Assembly: GCA_030750665.1 (NCBI GenBank)
Contig: JASMHR010000003.1
Coordinates: 1-52,922, forward strand
DNA: 52,922 nt
Source of the DNA: Candidatus Poseidoniaceae archaeon
Lineage (GTDB): Archaea; Thermoplasmatota; Poseidoniia; Poseidoniales; Poseidoniaceae
Reading direction: 5' to 3'
Shown in pieces: positions 15,898-36,240 of the stretch (position 1 is the stretch's first letter; each line of letters opens with the position of its first letter). The notes under the pieces were generated by a model, which had not been told where the DNA came from, ran no database searches, and worked only from the letters and a program-made list of their open reading frames with translations. Made by a program: the position numbers and the translations under genes.

Positions 15898-18800
15898 TCA
15901 TTCTTCTTCAGAATAATCTTCTTCGTCATCATCAGCACCAGCGTTGCTAGGTGGACCACTTCGAGAACTTGGCGGTGGACCTCTACGTCCTGCACCGGGA
16001 GGTGGACCTCTCTTGGAGTCAGGCGGTCCCTTTCGTCCACTCGTGCCAGATGGAGGAGGACCACGTCCAGTTCTTCTTGGTGGACCTTTACTGCCTTTCG
16101 TACTTGGTGGTGGTCCTCGTCGAGATCTGGAAGATTCTGCCTCATCTGCTACTTCTTCCTTCGTGTCGATACCAGCAATGGTCGGGACCTTGATGGACTC
16201 AATCATTGAATCCATATCAGAATCATCAGCCTCATCAGGAATTTCTTCTTCAGCATCCTGTATCAGGTCATCAATAGGGATTTGGGGAGTCATCATTACT
16301 CTGGAGACCGGAGTCAAACTTGAGGGCCCGTCTTCACCATCAGCCTCCTCTTCGCTAGTGGCTGGAGTCATGATTTGAGTAGATATAGGAGTAATACTTG
16401 CCATTTCTTTGACCGTTTCCGTCTCGGTTGATTCCGTTGGAGTAGTTTCAGGACTGAGAGTCGAGTCAGTAGATGGGGTCAATACCGTTGTTGAAACCGG
16501 AGTCAGTTGTGCAGTGACGGTCTTTGGGGCCTTCTCTTGAGGCTTCAGAATGGTTGTGGAGGTTGGAATCAATGGAGCTACTTCGGTGGTTATCTCCTTG
16601 CCAATTGGTGTTGGCAGTACCTCTTCCGGTTCTTCTTCAATCGGTTTTGCATCAGGTAGCCTTGGAGGAACCATACTTGGTGAGACTGGAGATCTTGCAG
16701 GTACTACCATTCCCTCTGAGGTGATTTCTGGAACATTGGGTTCGATTGCTTCGCCTACTGGAGTTGGTCTTTGTGTAGGAGGTACTTGCACATGAGGTAC
16801 TTGCGCAGATGGCGGTGCCTGAACGGGTGCTACAGCGGGGGTATCTGGCCTTGGATCAAAGGACATTGGTTCGCCAGCACCACCACGTGCGGGACCGGTT
16901 GGGAGTGGTTGTCTAACCACCCTCTGTACTGGTTGAATCGCTTGTTGAGCAGGCCCACCAGTAAGTGGAGGTTGGATTGGGTGAGCCATCGGTCCACCTT
17001 GTTCAGCCAATGGCCGGCGCTTCAATTCCGGCATTGCAGGCCCGCGAGATGTACCAGCACCCAATCCGCCGAGAGTTGGTCTTCCAGCAGCTGCAGTCAA
17101 TGGGTCAGCCCTTGCACCAAGTTTGCTTGGGTCTCCTAATCCTCCAATGGCAGCACCACCAGGTTGGCCAGCAATTGCTGAAAGCCATGACTGTTGTTTT
17201 GCGATTCGTCCTTCTTCACTCTGAAGGCGAGCGAATTCCTTCTCCTTGTCAGTCAGTCGGTCTGAATCTGCATCAATTTCCATCTGCATCTTCTGTTCAA
17301 TGGATTCTCGCATCTTCGATTCTGCCATTCCGCGGAATGCATCCATTTGATCTCCAAGTTGCCCGAGCCGGTCTTTGATCTCAGCACGCTTGATGCCGAG
17401 TTGTGATTCTATCTCGGCACGGATTTGACTTTCTTTGCGCCGAATCTCGATGAGTGCCTTGTTGCGCATGATTTCTTCACGCTTGGATAGTTGCTGTTCG
17501 AGTTGACTCGATATCTGGTCTTCCTTGGAGGAACGGAATTCCTTGAGGCGGTCTTCCATATCGACTTCAAGTTCGAGAGTAGTCTCATCTCGAATAAGGT
17601 CAAGGTCTGTCTCAAATGTCAAACGTTCGTTGCGCATCTGAGCATCGATCTCAGACATTATCGCCTTCATGGCGGCCTTCTCACGCGATTGGAATTCGGT
17701 CTCCAATCTCTCGACCCAATCCCTCTTCTCTTCTCCAAACTTGACATCTAGGTTTTCTCTGATATCATTCTCCTGATCATAACGGAATCTGGAAAGGCGA
17801 TTCTGTATCTCGGCTTCTCTAGCCATTCGATAGGCAGCGAATTCTTCCTCCAGACGGCGATTCATCTCGCCTTCGATATCTTCTGTGATTTCTCTGCTGA
17901 TGCTTTCTACTGCTTGACCAAAGGTCAAGTCATACTTTTCTCGCAATCTCTCTTTGCGCGATGCCAATCTGTCAGCATAGGATTCAGACAAGTCTCTGTT
18001 GATCTGTAAACGCAACTCGTCTCGACGACGGGCGACAGCCATTTCGACATCTTCTCTCATCCTGTCTTCAAGTTCTACGGTCTCTCTGCGTAGGTCCTGT
18101 TCGATATCCGATTGTAGTTGTTGAGCAACCTCTTCCTCAAGCCTTCTGCTGCGTCTTTCATATTCTGACCGCAGTCTGGTCTCTCGCGAGCGCATGCGTT
18201 CGCGTAACTGATTCTCTAGGCGTCGACGAATGCCAATTCGCAATTGTTCCTCGCGTTCTGAGAGAAGAGACATGTTTTCTTCTTCCAGGCGTTCAACCTC
18301 ATTCTTCTCGACCTGTGAGAAATGAATCTCCAGTTCCGATTCAATGGTTGATTCCATATCTCGAATTCGGCTTTGAAGAGCCTGATCGTACTCGATCTCC
18401 ATACGCTCTTTCTGGAAGGTCAAGCGACGCTGATGATTATCGGAGAGATCCTGCTCAAGTCTGCCACGCATATGCTGACGGTGTTCCTCAAGTCGACGTT
18501 CTTGTTCGACTTCTAGTTGCTCACGCATTGAATCCACTTCGCGCTGTAACTGTAACTCCAAGCGCTCCCGGATATCCTTCTCCTCTTTTCCAAGTGCTTC
18601 TATCTCGAGTTGTGCCAGTTCATCTTCCATCTCTTTACGAAGTTCACGCTCAAGTTGAGATAGTGTCATCTCATGTTGTTGGCTGAGTTCGCTGGCGATG
18701 ACTTCCTGCATAGCAGATATTCTTTCTGATTGTGCTTTCAGACGAAGATGTCTATCTCTACGCAGTCGGGCTCGAAGGCGTTCTTCTTCTCGGAACCTAG

Positions 18801-18948
18801 CGCTACGCTGAACCGTTGAATCCAATGTTGGGCTGGCAGCTCTAGTCATCTGATTGCGCAGAGCCGAAAGTGTCAATCCGTCGCCTGAGTGCTTCCGCTC
18901 TTCGCGGCTTCTCAGAACCGCTGTATCTCCGCTGTCGCTGACGCTCAT
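15898..18948 (-). CDS. Long coiled-coil protein with a Pro-rich disordered C-terminus
   Basis: About 550 aa of E/R/L/Q-rich helical sequence, then a Gly/Pro-rich region, TP[VI]S repeats, (R/K)GPP repeats and an acidic end. No TM helix or ATPase motif. Confidence 0.8.
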   Translation of the reverse strand: MSVSDSGDTAVLRSREERKHSGDGLTLSALRNQMTRAASPTLDSTVQRSARFREEERLRARLRRDRHLRLKAQSERISAMQEVIASELSQQHEMTLSQLERELRKEMEDELAQLEIEALGKEEKDIRERLELQLQREVDSMREQLEVEQERRLEEHRQHMRGRLEQDLSDNHQRRLTFQKERMEIEYDQALQSRIRDMESTIESELEIHFSQVEKNEVERLEEENMSLLSEREEQLRIGIRRRLENQLRERMRSRETRLRSEYERRSRRLEEEVAQQLQSDIEQDLRRETVELEDRMREDVEMAVARRRDELRLQINRDLSESYADRLASRKERLREKYDLTFGQAVESISREITEDIEGEMNRRLEEEFAAYRMAREAEIQNRLSRFRYDQENDIRENLDVKFGEEKRDWVERLETEFQSREKAAMKAIMSEIDAQMRNERLTFETDLDLIRDETTLELEVDMEDRLKEFRSSKEDQISSQLEQQLSKREEIMRNKALIEIRRKESQIRAEIESQLGIKRAEIKDRLGQLGDQMDAFRGMAESKMRESIEQKMQMEIDADSDRLTDKEKEFARLQSEEGRIAKQQSWLSAIAGQPGGAAIGGLGDPSKLGARADPLTAAAGRPTLGGLGAGTSRGPAMPELKRRPLAEQGGPMAHPIQPPLTGGPAQQAIQPVQRVVRQPLPTGPARGGAGEPMSFDPRPDTPAVAPVQAPPSAQVPHVQVPPTQRPTPVGEAIEPNVPEITSEGMVVPARSPVSPSMVPPRLPDAKPIEEEPEEVLPTPIGKEITTEVAPLIPTSTTILKPQEKAPKTVTAQLTPVSTTVLTPSTDSTLSPETTPTESTETETVKEMASITPISTQIMTPATSEEEADGEDGPSSLTPVSRVMMTPQIPIDDLIQDAEEEIPDEADDSDMDSMIESIKVPTIAGIDTKEEVADEAESSRSRRGPPPSTKGSKGPPRRTGRGPPPSGTSGRKGPPDSKRGPPPGAGRRGPPPSSRSGPPSNAGADDDEEDYSEEE

Positions 18949-19050
18949 GGGCACCCCATCCCGAACTGCATGCACATTCACCCATACTTAAGGGAGGGGG
19001 GTCGCAATCTGTTTCGCGAGGCTGATTATGCGGCGTGGAAGCCACCCCCG

Positions 19051-27101: not shown

Positions 27102-27232
27102 TTATCACATAGAATCACGGTTTTCATTTACTGAACTCAGGAGATTCACAGACTTCATTCACCTGACTAAGCCAGTTGAAGTCTTAACGAGAAACCGAAC
27201 CTGTTGAATAGGTCGCTTCCATGTCAATATAC

Positions 27233-30200
27233 ATGGCGAAGCAGCGTATCAGCCTGTTGATTGCGGGATTATTCCTTTCGGTCATGATGTTGCCAGTCAT
27301 CGCTGCTGAATCCAGCGTTCCAGAGCATTTGATCATAGTGGATTGGAGTGCGGTGGAATGGGGTACTGAAGAGGAAGGCGGAGTTGAGCAGCGCCATTCA
27401 TATCGATTTGAGTTCAATGATGCCCTCAATTCCACTGTTTCAGAATTCAGTGCTGATGTTTCTCACTTCGATTCTGAAGGGTTATTGTTGAATGAATCAA
27501 ATTACTCTGTTGCGGAGATGGAATTTGTCAATGACCGAATTCTGCGGTTGGATTTGCCAGACAAGTTGTCATTTGGAGATTCCATCAATATCGAGACTTT
27601 CTGGGATGGTGTTGCAAGCGGTGTTTCAAGAAATATCCAAGCGACGGTTTGGAATCAACCTCTTGCAGATCATTCAGTGACTATTACAACAGACTGGAAT
27701 TTGAATCATAGTTATGAGGATGAGAATGGTTCTCAGCACTATCTGTTACTGTTCAATGGAAGAGGTTGGCAGGAGAGACAGGGCGAACTCCTGCATGCTT
27801 GGGAACTAGGAGATGGAATAGTAACCATAAACGAAGTTGGAGAGAATGAAACCACTTGGATCAATCTGACTCTTGATGAAATTTGGAGGAATGAGACCAC
27901 GGTTGATGGAGTATTACAGGCTCAGTATTTCAATGCCCAAGGCTGGGGTGATTTAGTCGTGGAGTTTTCTGATGATGAGATGGATTCCATGCGAGTCACA
28001 GCCGCTGTCTCAAATGCACAATTCAATCGCAGCACGGTGGATGGAATCATTTCTGAAGGCACCAAGTTGGAGGCAACTGGATATCTCAATGCCAGCAATG
28101 AAGATGAAGATGGAGAGTTGTGGATGAATGGAACAGTCTCAATCCTTTATTTCGAGCGCTATGAGGTGGATGGAGCCATAGAATATAATCTCAATCAATT
28201 CGAAGGCTATGCAGATATGCAGATGGTTGATGGAGACAATCGCTTCGATATCGATATCTCTGAAATAGCGATGTATGAAGAATGGGAGGATGGAGTGCGT
28301 ATTGGACAGAGAAACTCGATTAATGGAGACGGCACTTTCGGATTCAAATCAGATGAGGAAGATGGTGATATCACCATCAATGGAACAGTGTATGGCCTGC
28401 GTGACACCAGTGTTGATGGTGAGAAGACTGACCAGTATTTTCACATGGATGGAACCTTCACTGGAGATGTTGATGGAACCTTTGGAGCACTCACCAACAT
28501 CGAGACTTCGGGCGAGTGGCAGAACCACAATGGGACTGATTATCCTGTAAATGTGATTCTGGAAGAAACATGGCTCAACCTGACAGGTTCTGGTGGTTTT
28601 GGCTTCGATGGGGCTGGACAGAACCACAACAGAACTTGGAACTATGAGGTTCCATACATCGATTGGGATAACACCACCATCTACAGGAAATGGGAGAGTA
28701 CTGGTTTCGATAATGATGAGGGTGATGAATATCCTGAGGAATCACCCGTGCCCTCCCCGCCTACTCCTCCGGAGACGGAAGATGGCCTTGGTGAGGTTAA
28801 TCTGAGTCGTGAGACTGGGCTTTCACCTGTATCGTTACAACCTGGAGACATGGTTTCTCTCCTTGGCTCAGACCTTGTTGAACTGGATATCGTTGCCTCT
28901 GCCATCACTACCTCCACCAAAGATGGTCGTGTGTTCGATGTCACTCAATGGTCTGGTATCTACTACAATGAGGAGGGCACTTTGAGTGAAGGAACCGCTA
29001 CTGGTGAAGTCATCAACAAGGGCCCTCTTTCTGGATTGATATCCAGTGTCCAAAGGCAATTTACCATTCCAGCAGTGAATGATGAAGAAGCGGTATTCAC
29101 TGAGGTTCAGGTATTGGAGAGGATCAGTTATCCTTCTGTGGTTTCTGAGGGGGAGAACAGTGCACCGAGTGTGGAATCGATTTCCTTGCGCAGCAGCCTA
29201 GTCAACGAGGGGGGAACTTCTACCTATCTTGAGGTCAGCATTTTGGATCCTGATTGGAATGCCATCTCAGTTGTTGCCAATCTCAGTACTCTTGGTCTTG
29301 GCTCTGTACAGTTGGGCGACGAGGGATTGAATGGAGACTTGACGATACACGATGATGTTTGGACCACTCAAATTTCAGTTCCTGGAATTCAACATGGTGA
29401 ATTATCGGTATTGGTCACAGCCACTGATACATGGGGAGCGACAGATAGCATGAATGGAACCTTGGAGGTGTTCAATCAGGCTCCACGATTAAGGGAATGG
29501 GAACATGTACCATCATTGGCTTTCCGTGGCGAGATACTCATTGTCAATGCTGGAGTCAACGATGGCAATGGTGTGGCCAAAGTGGCAGTCGATATGCGCG
29601 ACCATGGTGGAGAACTACATGACTTGAGTCTCAACACCGGCAATCAGTTATGGATGGGGCAGATTCCAGTTCCAGAGGGAATGCATCCTGGTGAACAGGC
29701 TCTGAAGGTGTTCATGGAAGATGATGATGGAGCATCGATAATGGTCACATCTACGCAGAGTCTGGATTCACATTATCTGGATGGTCCAGAGGATGAAGCA
29801 TTACGGATTCGGATTATGAATCAGGGCCCGTTGCTTGAAAGTCCAGCAATTTCGCCCGATGAGATTGTACAGGTTGAAAATGATGGAGACGAGCAATCAT
29901 ACACGGTCACCGTTCATGTTTCGGATCCAGATGATATCAGATGGGTGAAAGTCAAACTTGGAGCACTTGCCGCAATTGGGCAACAAGATACATTCCTGTT
30001 GATGTATGATAATGGAGAAAATGGGGACCTGACTGCTGGGGATGGAATCTACAGCCTTTCTTTCGAGAGTCGAAGAGGAGTCCCTCTAGGCACCCATCCA
30101 GTCACTTTCAAGGCTGAAGATGATTACGGAGCTGAAGAATATCATGATGAATTCATCATCAAGGTTGTAGAGGCCCAGAGCGAAACTCTGGATGCGGATC

Positions 30201-30370
30201 AAGTGTTCAGTTTCGCTGATGATCCTGTGGTCATTCTTTGGGTGATAGGAATTCTTCTTGGTTTGGCTCTTCCTTCAGCGGCAGTCATTGCATTGCGTAA
30301 AAGGAAGCAGAACAAAGAGAATCCATGGAGCGGAAAGCAGCAGGGTGACGATGCCTGGGGTAACCAATGA
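27233..30370 (+). CDS. Large acidic cell-surface glycoprotein with a C-terminal TM anchor
   Basis: Signal peptide, many N-x-S/T sequons, LGDEGLNGD..HDDVWT and LMYDNGENGD..GDGIYS motifs (choice-of-anchor X-like), TM helix followed by RKRK. Confidence 0.75.
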   Translation: MAKQRISLLIAGLFLSVMMLPVIAAESSVPEHLIIVDWSAVEWGTEEEGGVEQRHSYRFEFNDALNSTVSEFSADVSHFDSEGLLLNESNYSVAEMEFVNDRILRLDLPDKLSFGDSINIETFWDGVASGVSRNIQATVWNQPLADHSVTITTDWNLNHSYEDENGSQHYLLLFNGRGWQERQGELLHAWELGDGIVTINEVGENETTWINLTLDEIWRNETTVDGVLQAQYFNAQGWGDLVVEFSDDEMDSMRVTAAVSNAQFNRSTVDGIISEGTKLEATGYLNASNEDEDGELWMNGTVSILYFERYEVDGAIEYNLNQFEGYADMQMVDGDNRFDIDISEIAMYEEWEDGVRIGQRNSINGDGTFGFKSDEEDGDITINGTVYGLRDTSVDGEKTDQYFHMDGTFTGDVDGTFGALTNIETSGEWQNHNGTDYPVNVILEETWLNLTGSGGFGFDGAGQNHNRTWNYEVPYIDWDNTTIYRKWESTGFDNDEGDEYPEESPVPSPPTPPETEDGLGEVNLSRETGLSPVSLQPGDMVSLLGSDLVELDIVASAITTSTKDGRVFDVTQWSGIYYNEEGTLSEGTATGEVINKGPLSGLISSVQRQFTIPAVNDEEAVFTEVQVLERISYPSVVSEGENSAPSVESISLRSSLVNEGGTSTYLEVSILDPDWNAISVVANLSTLGLGSVQLGDEGLNGDLTIHDDVWTTQISVPGIQHGELSVLVTATDTWGATDSMNGTLEVFNQAPRLREWEHVPSLAFRGEILIVNAGVNDGNGVAKVAVDMRDHGGELHDLSLNTGNQLWMGQIPVPEGMHPGEQALKVFMEDDDGASIMVTSTQSLDSHYLDGPEDEALRIRIMNQGPLLESPAISPDEIVQVENDGDEQSYTVTVHVSDPDDIRWVKVKLGALAAIGQQDTFLLMYDNGENGDLTAGDGIYSLSFESRRGVPLGTHPVTFKAEDDYGAEEYHDEFIIKVVEAQSETLDADQVFSFADDPVVILWVIGILLGLALPSAAVIALRKRKQNKENPWSGKQQGDDAWGNQ

Positions 30371-30526: not shown

Positions 30527-30916
30527 TCAGTCATGGGTATGAAACATTGTCGTTTCAAGAATCTGGACCAGTTCCATGATCTGGTCTCTGATGTTACGGT
30601 AAACATCCAATCCCTGACTTACTGGGTCGTCCAACCCCCAGTCGGCATCGGCCTTCAGAGTCGGGCATGTCTCTTCCACTCCACATCCCATGGAGATGAC
30701 CTTGTCCCATGAATCGAGAGATTCAAGGTCAAGCAGTTTGGGGGTTTGAGCAGAGATATCAATACCCAATTCCGCCATTACTTCGACCGCATTGCTCGCT
30801 ACTCTACTAGCCGGCGTGGTACCGGCGCTTGCTGCATCATGTCCATACTCTCTTGCGAATCCCTCTGCCATCTGGCTTCTACAAGAATTTCCAACACAGA
30901 CGAACAGCACTTTCAT
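30527..30916 (-). CDS. arsC: Thioredoxin-dependent arsenate reductase / low-molecular-weight PTP
   Basis: MKVLFVCVGNSCRSQMAEG, SMGC...CP and WGLDDP. Confidence 0.8.
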   Translation of the reverse strand: MKVLFVCVGNSCRSQMAEGFAREYGHDAASAGTTPASRVASNAVEVMAELGIDISAQTPKLLDLESLDSWDKVISMGCGVEETCPTLKADADWGLDDPVSQGLDVYRNIRDQIMELVQILETTMFHTHD

Positions 30917-31007
30917 TGGAACCAGCAAGATGACGACCCCATTTGAATGATGTCCATAGAGAGAATCGAGTCGGCAGGCACTTGTCCTTACCGCCTCTCG
31001 ACCAACC

Positions 31008-31409
31008 ATGTTGCCCTCACGCTGGAATCCGTGGAGAGGCATCATTCTGACTTTGATCATCTTCGTCATCGAATTTGGATTGCATATCGTCTTCGCTGCC
31101 AAGCAATGGGATATTCTATTCTTGTTCGTTGCAATCGATATGTTCTTCCTGACCGTTTGTTTTGCTCCAATTGCATTGATTCTTGGTGGGGCAGCAAACC
31201 ATCATGTCGGGCAGCAAGTCATTGGAATCGGGACCACTATTGCAGTTCCCTTGACGATGGGGTTTTTCTGGGCTGTCAATGATATGACCTGGTCGTATTG
31301 GTTGATTGGTTCAACCACTCTTCCGATGTTGTCACAGATACTCTGGTATCGATGGGAAAGAGGGCTTTCCAACCTCATCTATCGCTCGGTTATTGTAGAG
31401 GAAGAGTGA
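31008..31409 (+). CDS. Hypothetical membrane protein (about 4 TM helices)
   Basis: Hydrophobic ORF filling the gap and co-oriented with mrp. Confidence 0.65.
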   Translation: MLPSRWNPWRGIILTLIIFVIEFGLHIVFAAKQWDILFLFVAIDMFFLTVCFAPIALILGGAANHHVGQQVIGIGTTIAVPLTMGFFWAVNDMTWSYWLIGSTTLPMLSQILWYRWERGLSNLIYRSVIVEEE

Positions 31410-31446: not shown

Positions 31447-32463
31447 ATGACTGAATCTCCCGTCTCTCAACACACCCCCGACAAATCTGAAACTCCTGCT
31501 CCAGAGGGGGAAGCAAGTCCTCAACAGAGGAAGCAGATGGAAGCGGCATATCAGCAAATGAAGCGACAGATGGCGATGAAGAAGATTGCTGAAGAAATCT
31601 CACACAAGATCATGGTCTTGTCCGGCAAGGGTGGCGTTGGTAAGTCAACGGTAGCAACCGGTCTGGCTCTATCCTTGGCAGAACAGGGCCTGAAAGTCGG
31701 ACTTCTTGACATCGATATCACCGGTCCTAATGTTCCCAAGATGATGGGACTTGATGGAATGAGGCTGCATGTGGAGGAGGGTCGTATCTATCCTAATATT
31801 GGACATTCGGGTGTGAAGGTCATATCGATGGCTTTCCTATTGGAGGATGAAGATACACCTGTGGTCTGGCGTGGACCGATCAAGCTCGGTGCCATCCAAC
31901 AGTTCATTGCTGACGTTGAATGGGGGCTCCTTGATCATCTGATCATAGATTTCCCTCCTGGGACCAGTGATGAGCCACTCACTGTTGTTCAAAGTCTGCC
32001 GGATATTGATGGAATTGTGATAGTCACAACTCCACAAGACGTAGCATTGCTTGATAGCAGGAAGTCGATATCATTCGCTAAGACGTTGAATGTTCCAGTT
32101 CTTGGCGTGGTTGAGAATATGAGTGGTTATACTCTGCGCGGAAAAACAGAGCCTAACAGTAGATTGGAACTCGTTGGCCCTGGTGGCAAGATGATAGAGG
32201 TCGAGGCTGATGATGGCGGAGATTGGTCAGCGGTTCTTGATATTTTCAAGAGAGGTGGGGGTGAGAAGACTGCATCGGACCTCAAGGTACCCTTCCTTGG
32301 AGCATTACCCTTTGATCCAGGTGTGCTTCGTGGCGGTGATGATGGAGTTCATAGGATAATTGCGAATCCATCTGGAGAAAGCGCCAAGGCTTTTGCCAAG
32401 GTAGTTGAGGCAATTTCTGAACAGTTGTCAAATGAAGATGAATCTGGAGTCAACATCATCTGA
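31447..32463 (+). CDS. mrp: Mrp/NBP35 (ApbC) family P-loop ATPase lacking cysteines
   Basis: SGKGGVGKST, LDIDITGP, VWRGP, DFPPGTSD, VTTPQ and VENMS. Confidence 0.9.
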   Translation: MTESPVSQHTPDKSETPAPEGEASPQQRKQMEAAYQQMKRQMAMKKIAEEISHKIMVLSGKGGVGKSTVATGLALSLAEQGLKVGLLDIDITGPNVPKMMGLDGMRLHVEEGRIYPNIGHSGVKVISMAFLLEDEDTPVVWRGPIKLGAIQQFIADVEWGLLDHLIIDFPPGTSDEPLTVVQSLPDIDGIVIVTTPQDVALLDSRKSISFAKTLNVPVLGVVENMSGYTLRGKTEPNSRLELVGPGGKMIEVEADDGGDWSAVLDIFKRGGGEKTASDLKVPFLGALPFDPGVLRGGDDGVHRIIANPSGESAKAFAKVVEAISEQLSNEDESGVNII

Positions 32464-32470
32464 GGTGTCG

Positions 32471-32824
32471 GTGTTGAGTGATATTCCTAAGTTGATTGAA
32501 CTTGAGCGTACTGTGGAGGACGCAGTACTTCGATGGCAGGATGGCAGCGAGCATACCATCTCATGGAACGATATCCGATACTACTGTCCTTGCGCTAAAT
32601 GTGCTCCAAATCGGGATAATGAAGAGACTGCATTAGAATTGAGGAGTTCGGTAGAAGCATATGTATCTGAGAAGCCAACGGTCAGGGCAATCGGCCGATA
32701 CGCTTTGACATTTGAGTGGAGCCAAGGTTGTAGTAGCGGTATCCACAGATTTGAGAGGTTGTGGGAAATCGCAAATGGAACTGACCCAGACCATGGCAAA
32801 CCCTACGTGCATGGGGCTTGGTAG
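32471..32824 (+). CDS. DUF971 / GBBH-like N-terminal domain protein
   Basis: LRWQDG, IRYYCPCAKC and IGRYALTFEWSQGCSSGI. GAGGTG RBS overlaps the mrp stop codon. Confidence 0.82.
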   Translation: MLSDIPKLIELERTVEDAVLRWQDGSEHTISWNDIRYYCPCAKCAPNRDNEETALELRSSVEAYVSEKPTVRAIGRYALTFEWSQGCSSGIHRFERLWEIANGTDPDHGKPYVHGAW

Positions 32825-32920
32825 TCGGCATATCCCAAGGGAGATGTAAACTCACAACTCTGATGTGAGAATGGCACAGGCTTGAAGCGTTGAATGGTTG
32901 CGAGTACAGATGGGGCCGAG

Positions 32921-35026
32921 ATGACCGACGGAATCTATCTCACTTGGATAACCATGGCTTTGGCTGGTGGTGTCATCTTGATTCCACTGTTCAAGCCTCC
33001 TTGGGCCAAGGCCAATTTGCGTGCATTCAATGATATGTTTCGCCGCTATTGGCTACATATCTTGTTGGTCTTCCTGATATTCTTCTGGAAGGATACTCTG
33101 GATACGTTGGACCGGATATTCATGGCCAATACCCAATTGGAGATGACCGCTTGGGTCTATGCGATTGAAGGAGATTTGGTTCTGTGGGTACAACAGACTT
33201 TCAAAGCTCAATGGCTGACAGTATCTCTGACTCATTTTTACGTCTCTGGATATTTGATGGTGGTCTATGTCAGTATCGTCTACTTCTGTTACTTCAATGA
33301 TCGTTTCATGGCTGACAGGGTATCTCTGTGCGTCTTCTTCATCTATGCATTGGCGGTTCCATTCTATTTGTTCTTCAATGTCAGAGTGACCGGTGACCAC
33401 ATTCCAGCAATGGAGACTTTGGCTTATGACTTGACACCGGAGATCAATGATTGGTTTGAACGAATAGATCCATTCACTAATGGAATGCCCAGTTTGCATA
33501 TCGGCATACCATTTGGGGTCTGGTTGTGTATCGTCAGATGGGATGATGACAATAGATGGACGAAGTATAGAAACTTCTTGTTCGTCTATCTAGTGGTTAC
33601 ATGTTTCACCATCGTCTATCTCGGAATTCATTGGTTCGTGGATATCATCGGTGGCATGATAATTGCCGCAGTAGCAATCAGACTGACTGAACGATACAAC
33701 AAGGCGGTGTGGAACGTCCTTGATGAAAGAACTTTGAATGCAAGATTAGCAACCATTGTGACCCGTCCGCACCGAGTTTCATGGTGGATTTCTTCAAGAA
33801 CGAAGAAATTAGTAAACGCCATCAGACATCCATCCAGTCATGAGACTGGTTGGGCCATTATCATTGTCGTCGTCATCACTTCCAGTGTGATTGTCTGGGA
33901 CATGACCCACCGTGATCTACCGGTCACTGGTGTTGAAGCCCCTGTTGGTGCGGTGGCAGCAGATGGTTGGTTGGTGAGTTTGGATAATCGTAGTGAAGAA
34001 GGAATAGTCTTGGTGGTGGTAGATTTATCGAATCCAGATGACCCACAGGTGATTCCACATCCTTCCTTGACCATGAATGCATTACATGATACGGCGGGTG
34101 ACATGGTTGCTGTTGCTAATTCAACAGAATTGTGGATTATGGATCTCAACGAATTGGCCAAGGAACCCACCATCCTTCCTGTTTCAAGTCCAACTAATGT
34201 GAAGATAGGTAACTCAGGATTAGGAGAAATGGTGGTGCTTTTGGTTGAGGATGGAAAGTTGAGAGGTGTATCGAGGAGTGGTGATGTCGTCGTGACTCCG
34301 AGTCTTCAGGATGAGCATGTAGAGGTGCTCAATCTAGCGGTAGATGGAAACAAATTGGCCATGGTATTCACAGATAACAATTCAAAGGTTAGGGTCGGAC
34401 AGGTTGGCACTCAGGGATTCGTTGATTATCCGTTGAATGTGACTGCACCTGTTGAACAGGATGAAACCTTGAGAAGTTGGGGTTACATCATTGATGTGGT
34501 CAATGCAACTGTAGTGGATATCGATCTAGATGAGAGATGGTTGGTGGCTACTGTGAATGTGACTGCAACAGATAGATTGGTGCTAATCGATCTAGAAACA
34601 GGAACTAGTCAGTTGCTGTCGGATCCGAAATATCCGGCTCATGATCCTGCGGTAGGCAATGGTTTGGTTGTCTGGGCATCTCAATGGCATCTGAACCCAG
34701 TACAACCTAGTGAGCAGTTTGAGGATCATGAAATATGGTATTATGATCTTGAGAAGAATTTGACAGAACATCTGACTGAGGATCTCGTAGATCAGCGAAA
34801 TCCTCAGGTGACTAAGGATCATATCGTCTGGCAGGAAGTGGAAGAAGGAAGTGTTGTTTCAACCAAGGTCCATCCTAGGAACATGCAATTGCAACCTTAC
34901 TCATCCACTTCTTTGCAGGTCGCTACCATCATTTTGATTCCATTGGTATGTCTGCATATTTGGAAACGTAGCACCGAAGCGAGTTTGAAAGAAGCAGGAG
35001 AATCATCAGATTCAATTGATGATTGA
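32921..35026 (+). CDS. PAP2/Aur1-like (IPC synthase-type) membrane enzyme fused to a beta-propeller domain
   Basis: NGMPSLH and YLGIHWFVDIIGG catalytic motifs. Then a TM helix, a beta-rich repeat region and a final TM helix. Confidence 0.75.
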   Translation: MTDGIYLTWITMALAGGVILIPLFKPPWAKANLRAFNDMFRRYWLHILLVFLIFFWKDTLDTLDRIFMANTQLEMTAWVYAIEGDLVLWVQQTFKAQWLTVSLTHFYVSGYLMVVYVSIVYFCYFNDRFMADRVSLCVFFIYALAVPFYLFFNVRVTGDHIPAMETLAYDLTPEINDWFERIDPFTNGMPSLHIGIPFGVWLCIVRWDDDNRWTKYRNFLFVYLVVTCFTIVYLGIHWFVDIIGGMIIAAVAIRLTERYNKAVWNVLDERTLNARLATIVTRPHRVSWWISSRTKKLVNAIRHPSSHETGWAIIIVVVITSSVIVWDMTHRDLPVTGVEAPVGAVAADGWLVSLDNRSEEGIVLVVVDLSNPDDPQVIPHPSLTMNALHDTAGDMVAVANSTELWIMDLNELAKEPTILPVSSPTNVKIGNSGLGEMVVLLVEDGKLRGVSRSGDVVVTPSLQDEHVEVLNLAVDGNKLAMVFTDNNSKVRVGQVGTQGFVDYPLNVTAPVEQDETLRSWGYIIDVVNATVVDIDLDERWLVATVNVTATDRLVLIDLETGTSQLLSDPKYPAHDPAVGNGLVVWASQWHLNPVQPSEQFEDHEIWYYDLEKNLTEHLTEDLVDQRNPQVTKDHIVWQEVEEGSVVSTKVHPRNMQLQPYSSTSLQVATIILIPLVCLHIWKRSTEASLKEAGESSDSIDD

Positions 35027-36163
35027 CAGCATTCGTGATAACGCGATGTGGGCACTTGCTGCAGTTTCTACGGGAACCACTATTCTGTTTGCTTCTTCGC
35101 CGGATTCAATCCTTTGGAGTACATCGAGCAGATAGGAGGGATGAATCATGTACATGGTGGAACAAGGACAAACAAGAGGGTCAAGGCATTGCACTTTCTT
35201 GTCAGGATGGTCAGCATCCAGTCTCTTGACCATGTTGATCTCGGTACCTACTCCAATTGTGCTTCCACTGGGTGCTTCTGCAACATATCGCCTGATGAAC
35301 TCAGTGGAGCCGACAGCATCAGCAGCATCTACTACCTCTCTTCTGCATTCAGGATGTACCACAACAAGGGCATCGGGTTCACTCTCTCTGAGTTCCTCTA
35401 TCTGTGAAGTATTGAATCTCCGATGAACACTGCAATAGCCATGCCAGAGAATAATTCTAGCTTCATTCAGGATTTCTGTATCTGGACTTTCACTGGGGTT
35501 CCAGAGCATCATTTTCTCTTCTGGAATTCCCATTGCAAGTCCGGTGTTTCTTCCAAGATGTTGATCGGGAAAGAACAGAACCTTGCCTTCTGCCCCGGCT
35601 CTCTCAAAGGCCCAATCCATGACACCAGCAGCATTTGATGAAGTACAGACCACTCCACCATGCTCACCGACAAAAGCCTTCAATTCAGCACTTGAATTCA
35701 TGTAAGTTACTGGGACTAGGCAGGCTTCTCCGTCCTTGGCAGGTGCACTTTGATCAATACGATTTTTTGGGTCGACCAATCCCGACTCAGCAATCAATTC
35801 TTCCCAGCAGTCCTCAACCTGTTCGAGATTGGCCATATCTGCCATGCTGCATCCTGCTCTTAGATTGGGCAAACTGACTCTTTGTGATTCTCGACTCAGA
35901 ATGTCTGCTGATTCTGCCATGAAATGGACTCCACAGAACACGATGTTACTGGCTTCACTTTCGCTTGCCAGTTTCGATAGTAGGAAAGAGTCACCGAGTA
36001 GATCGGCGTGTTGTACAATACTATCCCTCTGGTAATGATGGCCGAGAATCAAGAGGTCCTTTCCCAGTCTCTTCTTGATAGCATCAATACGCTGATGCAA
36101 CTCCTCTTCTGAGAGGTCCAGCGTTTGTCCATCGATATCGCACATCGGCAGACTGAGAGTCAT
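35012..36163 (-). CDS. nadA: Quinolinate synthase
   Basis: LGHHYQR, FCGVHFMAE, AGCSMA, YMNSSA, GYCSVH, VHPEC and CPCSTM. Confidence 0.95.
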   Translation of the reverse strand: MTLSLPMCDIDGQTLDLSEEELHQRIDAIKKRLGKDLLILGHHYQRDSIVQHADLLGDSFLLSKLASESEASNIVFCGVHFMAESADILSRESQRVSLPNLRAGCSMADMANLEQVEDCWEELIAESGLVDPKNRIDQSAPAKDGEACLVPVTYMNSSAELKAFVGEHGGVVCTSSNAAGVMDWAFERAGAEGKVLFFPDQHLGRNTGLAMGIPEEKMMLWNPSESPDTEILNEARIILWHGYCSVHRRFNTSQIEELRESEPDALVVVHPECRREVVDAADAVGSTEFIRRYVAEAPSGSTIGVGTEINMVKRLDADHPDKKVQCLDPLVCPCSTMYMIHPSYLLDVLQRIESGEEANRIVVPVETAASAHIALSRMLSIIN

Positions 36164-36240
36164 TTCATTCCCCCTCAAGCCAATCTTACAGGGCCATCCC
36201 TTTGAAGCCATCCCTTCTGCGGGATGATGTTGGGGAGCCG

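Follow-up and report, generated by a model that had tools for sequence, protein, structure and literature searches.

Proteins of the Mrp/NBP35 family are near-universal, late-acting carriers of iron-sulfur (Fe-S) clusters. How can a member of this family work if it contains no cysteine at all? This question is raised by a gene pair in a stretch of 52,922 nucleotides (contig JASMHR010000003.1, positions 1 to 52,922; the whole stretch is called the window here) from a Candidatus Poseidoniaceae archaeon. In this pair the gene of an Mrp-type ATPase is followed on the same strand by that of a small DUF971 protein with four cysteines. An earlier note, made from the sequence alone, had proposed a split two-protein carrier of Fe-S clusters or metal whose ligands moved to the partner, or else a repurposed ATPase. 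The analysis described below confirms the observation, and the earlier interpretation is partly supported. As a tentative answer, which we hold to be somewhat less than an even bet, we propose an ATP-driven dimeric Mrp platform that itself carries no cluster and acts together with the four-cysteine (Cys4) DUF971 protein as its adaptor in the maturation of Fe-S proteins.

The translation agrees with the earlier note in that the 338-residue Mrp lacks any cysteine (Table 1). The protein matches PF10609 with an E value of 6.4e-87, in two stretches that are interrupted at an insert, and the family motifs VWRGP and DFPPGTSD are present. Conservation was judged from an alignment of 57 Mrp sequences. 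Besides the P-loop, K66, D88, D90, W141-R142, D168, PPGT (residues 170-173) and D175 are invariant and, hence, the ATPase machinery is conserved. Solved structures were compared by HMMER alignments to CFD1 (6g2g), an ApbC-type protein (8zkc) and two archaeal Mrp-type proteins (2ph1 and 3kb1). The best matches range from 3e-51 to 3e-48, with 6g2g (E 2.9e-51) and 2ph1 (E 4.3e-51) as the closest relatives. According to two articles, the CxxC motif of Mrp carriers is essential (PMC7980591, PMC11838916), and the second of them locates the cluster-bridging cysteines at the Mrp dimer interface. This C-terminal CxxC is absent from the Mrp of the window.

At the place of the motif, between ENMS (residues 223-226) and DIFKRGGG (residues 265-272), the alignments to all four structures halt around residue 228-230 and restart at 262-266. 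The spacing from ENMS to IF is 39 residues, whereas it is 12, CxxC included, in typical stand-alone Mrps of the phylum Thermoplasmatota. A cysteine-free insert of roughly 35 residues had been described in the earlier note. The insert is indeed present, but 35 is the length of the string that was quoted and the net gain is about 27 residues. In the AlphaFold2 model the strands of this block comprise residues 218-233, 239-243, 249-253 and 259-264. With a predicted local distance difference test score (pLDDT) of 82-90 the insert is among the best-modelled parts of the protein (mean pLDDT 69, predicted template modelling score (pTM) 0.71). It matches Big_6 (PF17936) weakly with 14.8 bits, compared to 25-28 bits in relatives and a cut-off of 27.6. 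From the model, the insert is predicted to be a four-stranded β module resembling half an immunoglobulin (Ig) domain, and this module would occupy the site of the family's cluster-bridging cysteines. Six residues inside the insert (G227, T229, G232, P245, G247 and G258) are invariant, and the insert is found throughout the order Poseidoniales. With no cysteine in the protein and the CxxC loop replaced, the earlier premise that the Mrp does not hold a cluster through cysteines stands: such holding is excluded. Because the β module has replaced the CxxC loop and no conserved cysteine is left, the Mrp should be unable to bridge a [4Fe-4S] cluster.

Table 1. Features of the gene pair and of its flanks; coordinates are positions in the window.
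Feature	Position	Strand	Evidence or remark
Low-molecular-weight (LMW) phosphatase/ArsC-type gene, conserved upstream flank	30527..31102	-	PF01451, 1.8e-20
Mrp/NBP35-family P-loop ATPase	31447..32463	+	Open reading frame (ORF), 338 aa, 0 Cys; PF10609, 291.5 bits vs cut-off 27.1
Deviant Walker A SGKGGVGKST, residues 59-68, signature lysine K61	31621..31650	+	Invariant in 57 sequences
Insert, residues 227-264, in place of the CxxC cluster loop	32125..32238	+	Alignment gap vs 6g2g, 8zkc, 2ph1, 3kb1
GAGGTG, Shine-Dalgarno-like hexamer	32462..32467	+	Overlaps Mrp stop, 3-6 nt before DUF971 start candidates
DUF971 (GBBH-like_N) protein, about 116 aa	32474..32824	+	PF06155, 52.2 bits vs cut-off 22.8
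CPCAKC, first three Cys of the CxCxxC site	32585..32602	+	Invariant in 27 sequences; aligns with CPCAEC of 3luu
Fourth Cys (GCSSG)	32729..32731	+	Invariant in 27 sequences; His (DGH) in typical DUF971
C-terminal tail DPDHGKPYVHGAW	32783..32821	+	Kept in families f1 and f2, absent from f3 DUF971
PAP2-domain membrane protein, conserved downstream flank	32894..35026	+	PF14378, PF01569

A protein without cysteines might be thought improbable in itself, as 3.5 cysteines are expected by chance in 338 residues. This argument was rejected, since six of the 44 long ORFs in the window likewise have none (cysteine makes up 1.03% of the residues). Two large, acidic, cysteine-free protein frames were seen in the window, at 27221-30370 (about 1050 residues) and 15901-18987 (about 1030 residues); the product of the former has a C-terminal membrane anchor and the look of a surface protein. 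It is the conserved loss across relatives, not the cysteine count alone, that exceeds chance. For this comparison 41 related genomes were used, from the window's own Poseidoniales family (f1) and the two other families of the order (f2 and f3). The names of its nearest database proteins put the window in Poseidoniales, the Marine Group II archaea, in or close to the family Thalassarchaeaceae. Mrp was detected in 38 of the 41 genomes, and 30 Mrp loci were fetched. The P-loop pattern picked out the Mrp in 28 loci, all with the long insert and without the CxxC; from the P-loop onward, 20 of these proteins have no cysteine and eight have a single, unconserved one.

With the functional CxxC motif of its family gone, the Mrp could also be a decaying gene that drifts after loss of function and carries a neutral insert. 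This is hardly conceivable, as the protein retains 62-89% identity across the three families with more than 150 invariant positions, including the catalytic residues and the glycines and proline of the insert, and as 37 of the 38 genomes with a match have an unbroken frame. The remaining case is a complete, one-contig genome with a shifted C-terminus (G019, locus L032). There the Mrp frame stops early (...RGGDLEFTEL, then a stop codon) and goes on in a different frame, a sign of a frameshift or of an assembly error around residue 300; the DUF971 gene follows as usual. Loss of the CxxC is not confined to Poseidoniales. Stand-alone Mrps without it were seen in one further Thermoplasmatota family, where the loop is shortened to ENMAGEIFGQGGG (locus L102, genome G091), and in some further proteins (P0387, P0389 and P0390), which read ENMSYLELPDGTRMDIFG. 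Thus, CxxC loss is recurrent in the Mrp family.

The intact ATPase could alternatively have left Fe-S biogenesis, with the β insert binding another target, for instance in positioning or metal insertion like other MinD/Mrp relatives. If so, the neighbourhood of the DUF971 gene in f1 would say little about function. In line with such repurposing, no thiol ligand remains in the Mrp, a new folded surface is predicted by the model at the former cluster site, and in two of the three families the genes lie apart. In addition, its scores stay under the NCBIfam equivalog cut-offs for MrpORP (320.1 vs 450) and ApbC (198.4 vs 348), and the cysteine-poor Mrp/MinD-type HypB 3vx3 is found among the solved relatives. 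This Thermococcus HypB, together with the metallochaperone HypA (5aun), is a precedent in which a cysteine-poor Mrp/MinD ATPase acts on a small partner that binds metal and has a Zn site. However, with an E value of 5.4e-29 the HypB type is a far weaker match and much more distant from the Mrp of the window than the true Fe-S carriers. Moreover, it is the only Mrp found in these genomes: a single strong PF10609 match is present in the window genome (71% complete), and exactly one Mrp is found in each of the 47 Poseidoniales genomes with a match in a phylum-wide sample of 251 Thermoplasmatota genomes (copies counted at E <= 1e-30), while the family is present in 225 of the 251. Its gene partner in f1, DUF971, has its only known genetic ties to Mrp and Fe-S maintenance and is placed 7-12 nt behind the Mrp gene. 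The Fe-S machinery is also present. One region of the window genome encodes SufB, SufD, a SufE-like frame (recognized by eye) and DUF59 as a stand-alone protein with a conserved GCP cysteine, and an A-type carrier is encoded elsewhere. The SUF set is complete, and there are Fe-S enzymes, NadA among them. NadA is a [4Fe-4S] enzyme, and its gene is located 2.2 kb downstream of the pair on the other strand. On balance, we regard repurposing as quite improbable.

The partner gene lies within the open frame 32405-32824, which matches PF06155 at 1e-13. Homology places its start at TTG 32474 or GTG 32471, and GTG 32465 is possible. The Mrp stop codon occupies 32461-63 and the DUF971 start follows 7-10 nt later; in the nearest relatives a TTG at +9 is the sole start candidate. 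A candidate 7-12 nt past the Mrp stop is present in 16 of 20 f1 loci, the remaining ones being three with spacers of 226-241 nt and one with a frameshifted Mrp end. Judged from its sequence and position, the hexamer GAGGTG may be the ribosome-binding signal of the DUF971 gene. The DUF971 protein is the sole PF06155 match in the window genome, and DUF971 was detected in 39 of the 41 relatives.

The description of the downstream gene as carrying CPCAKC and GCSSGI, with a cysteine for the usual histidine, proved correct. The QGC of the window protein aligns with the DGH of three solved DUF971 proteins (3luu, 2l6n and 2l6p), and all four cysteines are invariant in the 27 Poseidoniales sequences used for DUF971 conservation. 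Accordingly, this is not the CxCxxC-plus-His form of DUF971: CxCxxC is present and the fourth position is cysteine, a variation inside the family. A phmmer search with the protein against 1.84 billion representatives gave 544 matches at E <= 0.001; among the best 150 of these, sorted by motif, 80 have CxCxxC with histidine and 19 (8 of them fragments) have cysteine. The AlphaFold2 model of the DUF971 protein (pLDDT 91, pTM 0.82) matches the folds of 2l6n, 3luu and 2l6p as well as 3o2g and 3ms5, entries of the N-terminal domain of human BBOX1. BBOX1 was reached by the fold search alone and not by the DUF971 sequence profile. The homologous site in the BBOX1 N-domain is a structural Zn site of three cysteines and one histidine. 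In f1 and f2 the C-terminal tail has the consensus DPDxG(K/R)PYxHG(A/P)W.

Two peculiarities were noticed among other DUF971 proteins. P0141 (262 aa) joins an N-terminus of the lipoyl-domain/E3-binding type to the C-terminal half of a DUF971 of the Marine Group II (MGII) type and is probably a chimera of gene calling or assembly. The His-type DUF971 proteins of loci L118-L124, which are records of Terracidiphilus, Poribacteria, Deltaproteobacteria and Chloroflexota/Dehalococcoidia, have, just behind the domain, an additional C-terminal tail rich in cysteine (ICQCPEC, ICPCP, LCPCCAG or ICKCG/ICRCG), which is possibly a second metal site.

The coupling of the two genes had been part of the earlier proposal and, in the order as a whole, it turned out to hold for one family. 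Of the 22 f1 genomes that have both genes, 21 carry Mrp and DUF971 next to each other on one strand; the last has them at the ends of two contigs. In f2 and f3, by contrast, they are unlinked in 16 of 16 genomes; two closed contigs, for example, have them 127 and 134 kb apart. Unlinked genes in relatives, which the earlier note had named as counter-evidence, are thus found in part of the order. The PAP2 gene directly follows Mrp in four of four scanned f3 loci, with no DUF971 gene between, and the LMW phosphatase gene is beside Mrp in two of these four (L022 and L026). The surroundings of the f3 Mrp are therefore the flanks of the window minus DUF971. The DUF971 gene of f2 and f3 is located directly upstream of, and on the same strand as, the gene of the tRNA pseudouridine synthase Pus10 in all six scanned loci (L045-L047, L050-L052), and in four of the six an MMPL-family transporter gene flanks it on the opposite side. 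The DUF971 tree joins f2 to f1 (support of 95 in the SH-like approximate likelihood ratio test, SH-aLRT). Since f2 groups with f1 and since f2 and f3 share the order MMPL-DUF971-Pus10, the move of DUF971 behind Mrp looks derived. The position beside Pus10 would then be the ancestral one, a polarity that depends on where the tree is rooted.

If the ligands had moved, the Fe-S cluster (or Fe) that is normally bridged by Mrp dimers would be held by the four cysteines of DUF971, be it as a monomer, as a dimer or jointly with the conserved cysteine of the stand-alone DUF59 protein, and the Mrp would only drive its loading and release with ATP. Loss of the CxxC and the exchange of His for Cys were compared across lineages. 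Fusions of the two domains occur in several bacterial groups. Longer proteins were searched with a Cys-type match that is a fragment of a fused protein; 120 were returned and 116 of them contain both domains. The fourth ligand of DUF971 is cysteine in 84 and histidine in 32 of these 116. All 84 Cys-type proteins lack the CxxC (no cysteine in the loop in 81, a single one in three), whereas 25 of the 32 His-type proteins keep it, six are clearly without it and in one the loop was missed by the pattern. Three of the 84 Cys-type proteins carry a name at NCBI (Waddliaceae, Parachlamydia and Chlamydiales); the others are metagenome proteins. In the Mrp-domain tree (73 rows, 14 from Poseidoniales) the fused Cys4 clade stands apart from Poseidoniales with a support of 100 for each, and joining the two costs 44 log-likelihood units (p of the approximately unbiased test 0.037). 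In the DUF971 tree, which was computed without the ligand column, each Cys4 clade is placed among its own His-type neighbours (support 82-88). The separation in both trees implies that the combination of a CxxC-less Mrp with a Cys4 DUF971 arose at least twice.

A third lineage behaves differently. In Nitrospinota/Tectomicrobia the stand-alone DUF971 has cysteine at the fourth position in 14 of 14 loci (L104-L117), yet the only Mrp keeps its CxxC in five of five genomes (L125-L129). The Mrp of these genomes has an N-terminal extension that looks DUF59-like by eye. Hence, there were three or more gains of His-to-Cys, two of them next to an Mrp without the CxxC and one next to a canonical Mrp, while the CxxC was lost beside DUF971 in several more lineages without this exchange. 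The co-occurrence asked about in the earlier note is thus found in all 84 Cys-type fusions and in Poseidoniales, but it does not hold in Nitrospinota, in at least six fused proteins and in two genomes of Marine Group III (MGIII). We consider the association real, although it is neither strict nor statistically strong and, with few independent events, no more than suggestive.

For the transfer of ligands to DUF971 these data cut both ways. The complete absence of the CxxC from the Cys-type fusions, its retention in most His-type fusions, the repeated origin of the combination and the invariance of the four cysteines are what such a transfer would leave behind. Furthermore, plastid HCF101 holds a [4Fe-4S] cluster without a CxxC, by means of other cysteines that include one in DUF59 (PMC2805927). 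On the other hand, CxxC-less Mrp domains also occur with His-type DUF971 (the six clear cases) and, in the MGIII genus g25, with no fourth ligand at all (2/2). Each clade represents a single event, so that the statistics rest on about three gains. The DUF971 proteins of gammaproteobacteria that are cofit with Mrp do not have the cysteines. Finally, the site is laid out like a mononuclear knuckle, and in its fold the protein resembles the N-domain of BBOX1. In sum, it appears unlikely that the ligands moved, although this is the main rival reading. The same doubtful standing applies to its extended version, a carrier with ligands supplied in trans that evolved convergently in MGII and in the fusions of the Chlamydiae type, in which the bridging site of the Mrp dimer would have been given up and the Cys4 site of DUF971, possibly with the DUF59 cysteine, would hold a transient cluster or Fe, with the Mrp and its half-Ig insert serving purely to load and release it by means of ATP.

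A split origin, the further part of the earlier proposal, is not supported. In the 251-genome sample, DUF971 is found in 54 genomes, namely in Poseidoniales, in six of the seven genomes of f4 (a sister family in the same class, presumably MGIII) and in one other genome. In the seven DUF971 genomes outside Poseidoniales, DUF971 is fused to an Mrp domain; six of these loci were translated, the seventh (L071) being cut by a contig end. In the fusions of L065-L068 the Mrp domain contains CP(E/D)CGH and the DUF971 domain CPCA(G/H)C...SDGH, and that of L069 differs from them in its CPCASC. The two from genus g25, L070 (G266) and L071 (G260), are without the CxxC and without the fourth ligand. Their Mrp loop was read as ENM[SA]GF.PP.SDE.FHIFGEGGG and their DUF971 as D/TDPSPGA..GI. 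The MGIII fusions are placed among other fused proteins in the Mrp tree, and the 14 Poseidoniales rows (SH-aLRT 100) nest within the stand-alone Mrps of Thermoplasmatota (95). Consequently, the Poseidoniales Mrp is a modified ordinary archaeal Mrp and not one half of a split HCF101; on this tree the idea of a split HCF101 was rejected. HCF101-type proteins are a single polypeptide with the Mrp domain in the fused clade, and the pair from the window shows neither feature.

A comparison with known systems places the pair in context. With the stand-alone Mrp, ApbC, Nbp35 and Cfd1 carriers the MGII Mrp has the fold and the motifs in common (deviant Walker A, WRGP, DxPPGTxD and ENMS...GGG), but it has no CxxC or conserved cysteine and a 39-residue module instead of a 12-residue loop. 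HCF101 was described as DUF59-ParA-DUF971, with note taken of the CxCxxC motif, in PMC7980591. The HCF101 type (plastid, Toxoplasma and prokaryotic) consists of the same three modules, with CxCxxC in DUF971, and its plastid form also lacks the CxxC (PMC2805927, PMC7980591). Since DUF59 (in 41 of 41 relatives), Mrp and DUF971 are all present, the three HCF101 modules are separate genes across the order, DUF59 being in the suf region, and the MGII Mrp lies outside the fusion clade. HCF101-type fusions of the sister lineage keep both the CxxC and the histidine in four of six translated loci, whereas the MGII DUF971 has cysteine. The fused Mrp-DUF971 proteins of the Cys type (about 365 aa, no DUF59) resemble the MGII pair in the CxxC-less loop and the Cys4 DUF971 in 84 of 84 cases, but they are one chain and have a cysteine-free loop of about 12-15 residues rather than a long β insert. 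The stand-alone DUF971 proteins of Shewanella and Pseudomonas (2l6n, 2l6p; PP_5002 of P. putida) are likewise small Mrp partners with a proposed role in Fe-S maintenance. They differ from the MGII protein and its four cysteines by the lack of any CxCxxC, a retained DGH and a canonical Mrp.

A preprint by Price et al. reports that DUF971 shows cofitness with Mrp as well as BolA and YggX and calls it an FeS cluster maintenance protein (bioRxiv 10.1101/072470), and in two papers from 2025 its function is still called undefined (PMC11838916, PMC12041740). No literature was found on a cysteine-free Mrp, its insert or a Cys4 DUF971. Searches for DUF971 and PF06155 yielded no publication on fused Cys4 Mrp-DUF971 proteins, and, judged by title, none of the papers found on iron-sulfur and Mrp in Marine Group II/Poseidoniales was on topic.

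Taken together, the adjacency in f1, the fusions, the published cofitness and the joint occurrence of the Cys variant with a CxxC-less Mrp in 84 of 84 fusions make DUF971 a credible functional partner of Mrp. We return to the platform-and-adaptor arrangement proposed at the outset. The pair would be the Marine Group II form of an Mrp-DUF971 pair for iron-sulfur maintenance. Its Mrp would be an intact P-loop ATPase of the kind that dimerizes in an ATP-dependent manner, derived from an ordinary stand-alone archaeal Mrp. Bridging of a [4Fe-4S] cluster would have been lost, and the protein would no longer hold the cluster but most likely serve as a platform or escort driven by nucleotide. The DUF971 protein would be a domain of the GBBH-N type with a mononuclear Cys4 site, most likely for structural Zn. 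As the adaptor of Mrp it would probably dock on or near the new β module and link the ATPase to cluster donors or client apoproteins; SufBD, the stand-alone DUF59/SufT-like protein and the A-type carrier are possible donors in this genome. A structural role of the site is the more likely one because the DUF971 proteins of genera in which DUF971 is cofit with Mrp (2l6n from the Shewanella type and 2l6p from the Pseudomonas type) are without any CxCxxC, so that the core task of DUF971 with Mrp would need no metal site. We infer that DUF971 binds to Mrp, which metal is bound, what ATP does and that the pair takes part in Fe-S maturation.

Several observations weigh against this arrangement. The genes are unlinked outside f1, as described above. 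The four cysteines are invariant and His-to-Cys coincides with CxxC loss in two of three independent cases, which would also fit a site that binds cargo. As plastid HCF101 shows, a [4Fe-4S] cluster can be bound without a CxxC, and loss of this motif alone thus does not mean loss of cluster carrying. A predicted complex of two Mrp chains (residues 41-338) and one DUF971 chain, computed without controls, scored 0.21 and 0.18 compared to a mark of 0.32 and is neutral as to binding.

Metatranscriptome contigs identical to the window were found in three libraries from three studies: X1 (32301-32466, 32603-32753 and 32758-32900), X2 (32185-32429) and X3 (32310-32484). No contig of X1-X3 bridges the gene junction by at least 31 nt on both sides, and the contigs may include DNA carry-over. 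Upstream of the pair, between the phosphatase gene and Mrp, a hydrophobic ORF of 133 aa without Pfam match was seen at 31008-31409 on the plus strand. In f3 the corresponding gap is only about 90 nt and, hence, this ORF may not be a gene. Downstream, the gene of NadA (quinolinate synthase, 35012-36211, minus strand) converges on that of the PAP2-domain protein, and the two genes share 15 nt at their ends.

Poseidoniales belong to the most abundant archaea found in the surface ocean, and the known mode of cluster binding is closed to their sole Mrp. Either the delivery of Fe-S clusters by this family does not always need a bridging cluster, or a partner supplies the ligands. DUF971 has been tied genetically to Mrp since 2016-2018, and ligands supplied in trans, if true, would be the first biochemical function for this domain; the comparison across lineages tempers such a story of ligand migration. 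The MGII proteins are split, small and well folded and, therefore, each part can be tested separately. The fused Cys4 clade and the Cys4 DUF971 of Nitrospinota with its CxxC-containing Mrp provide useful contrasts.

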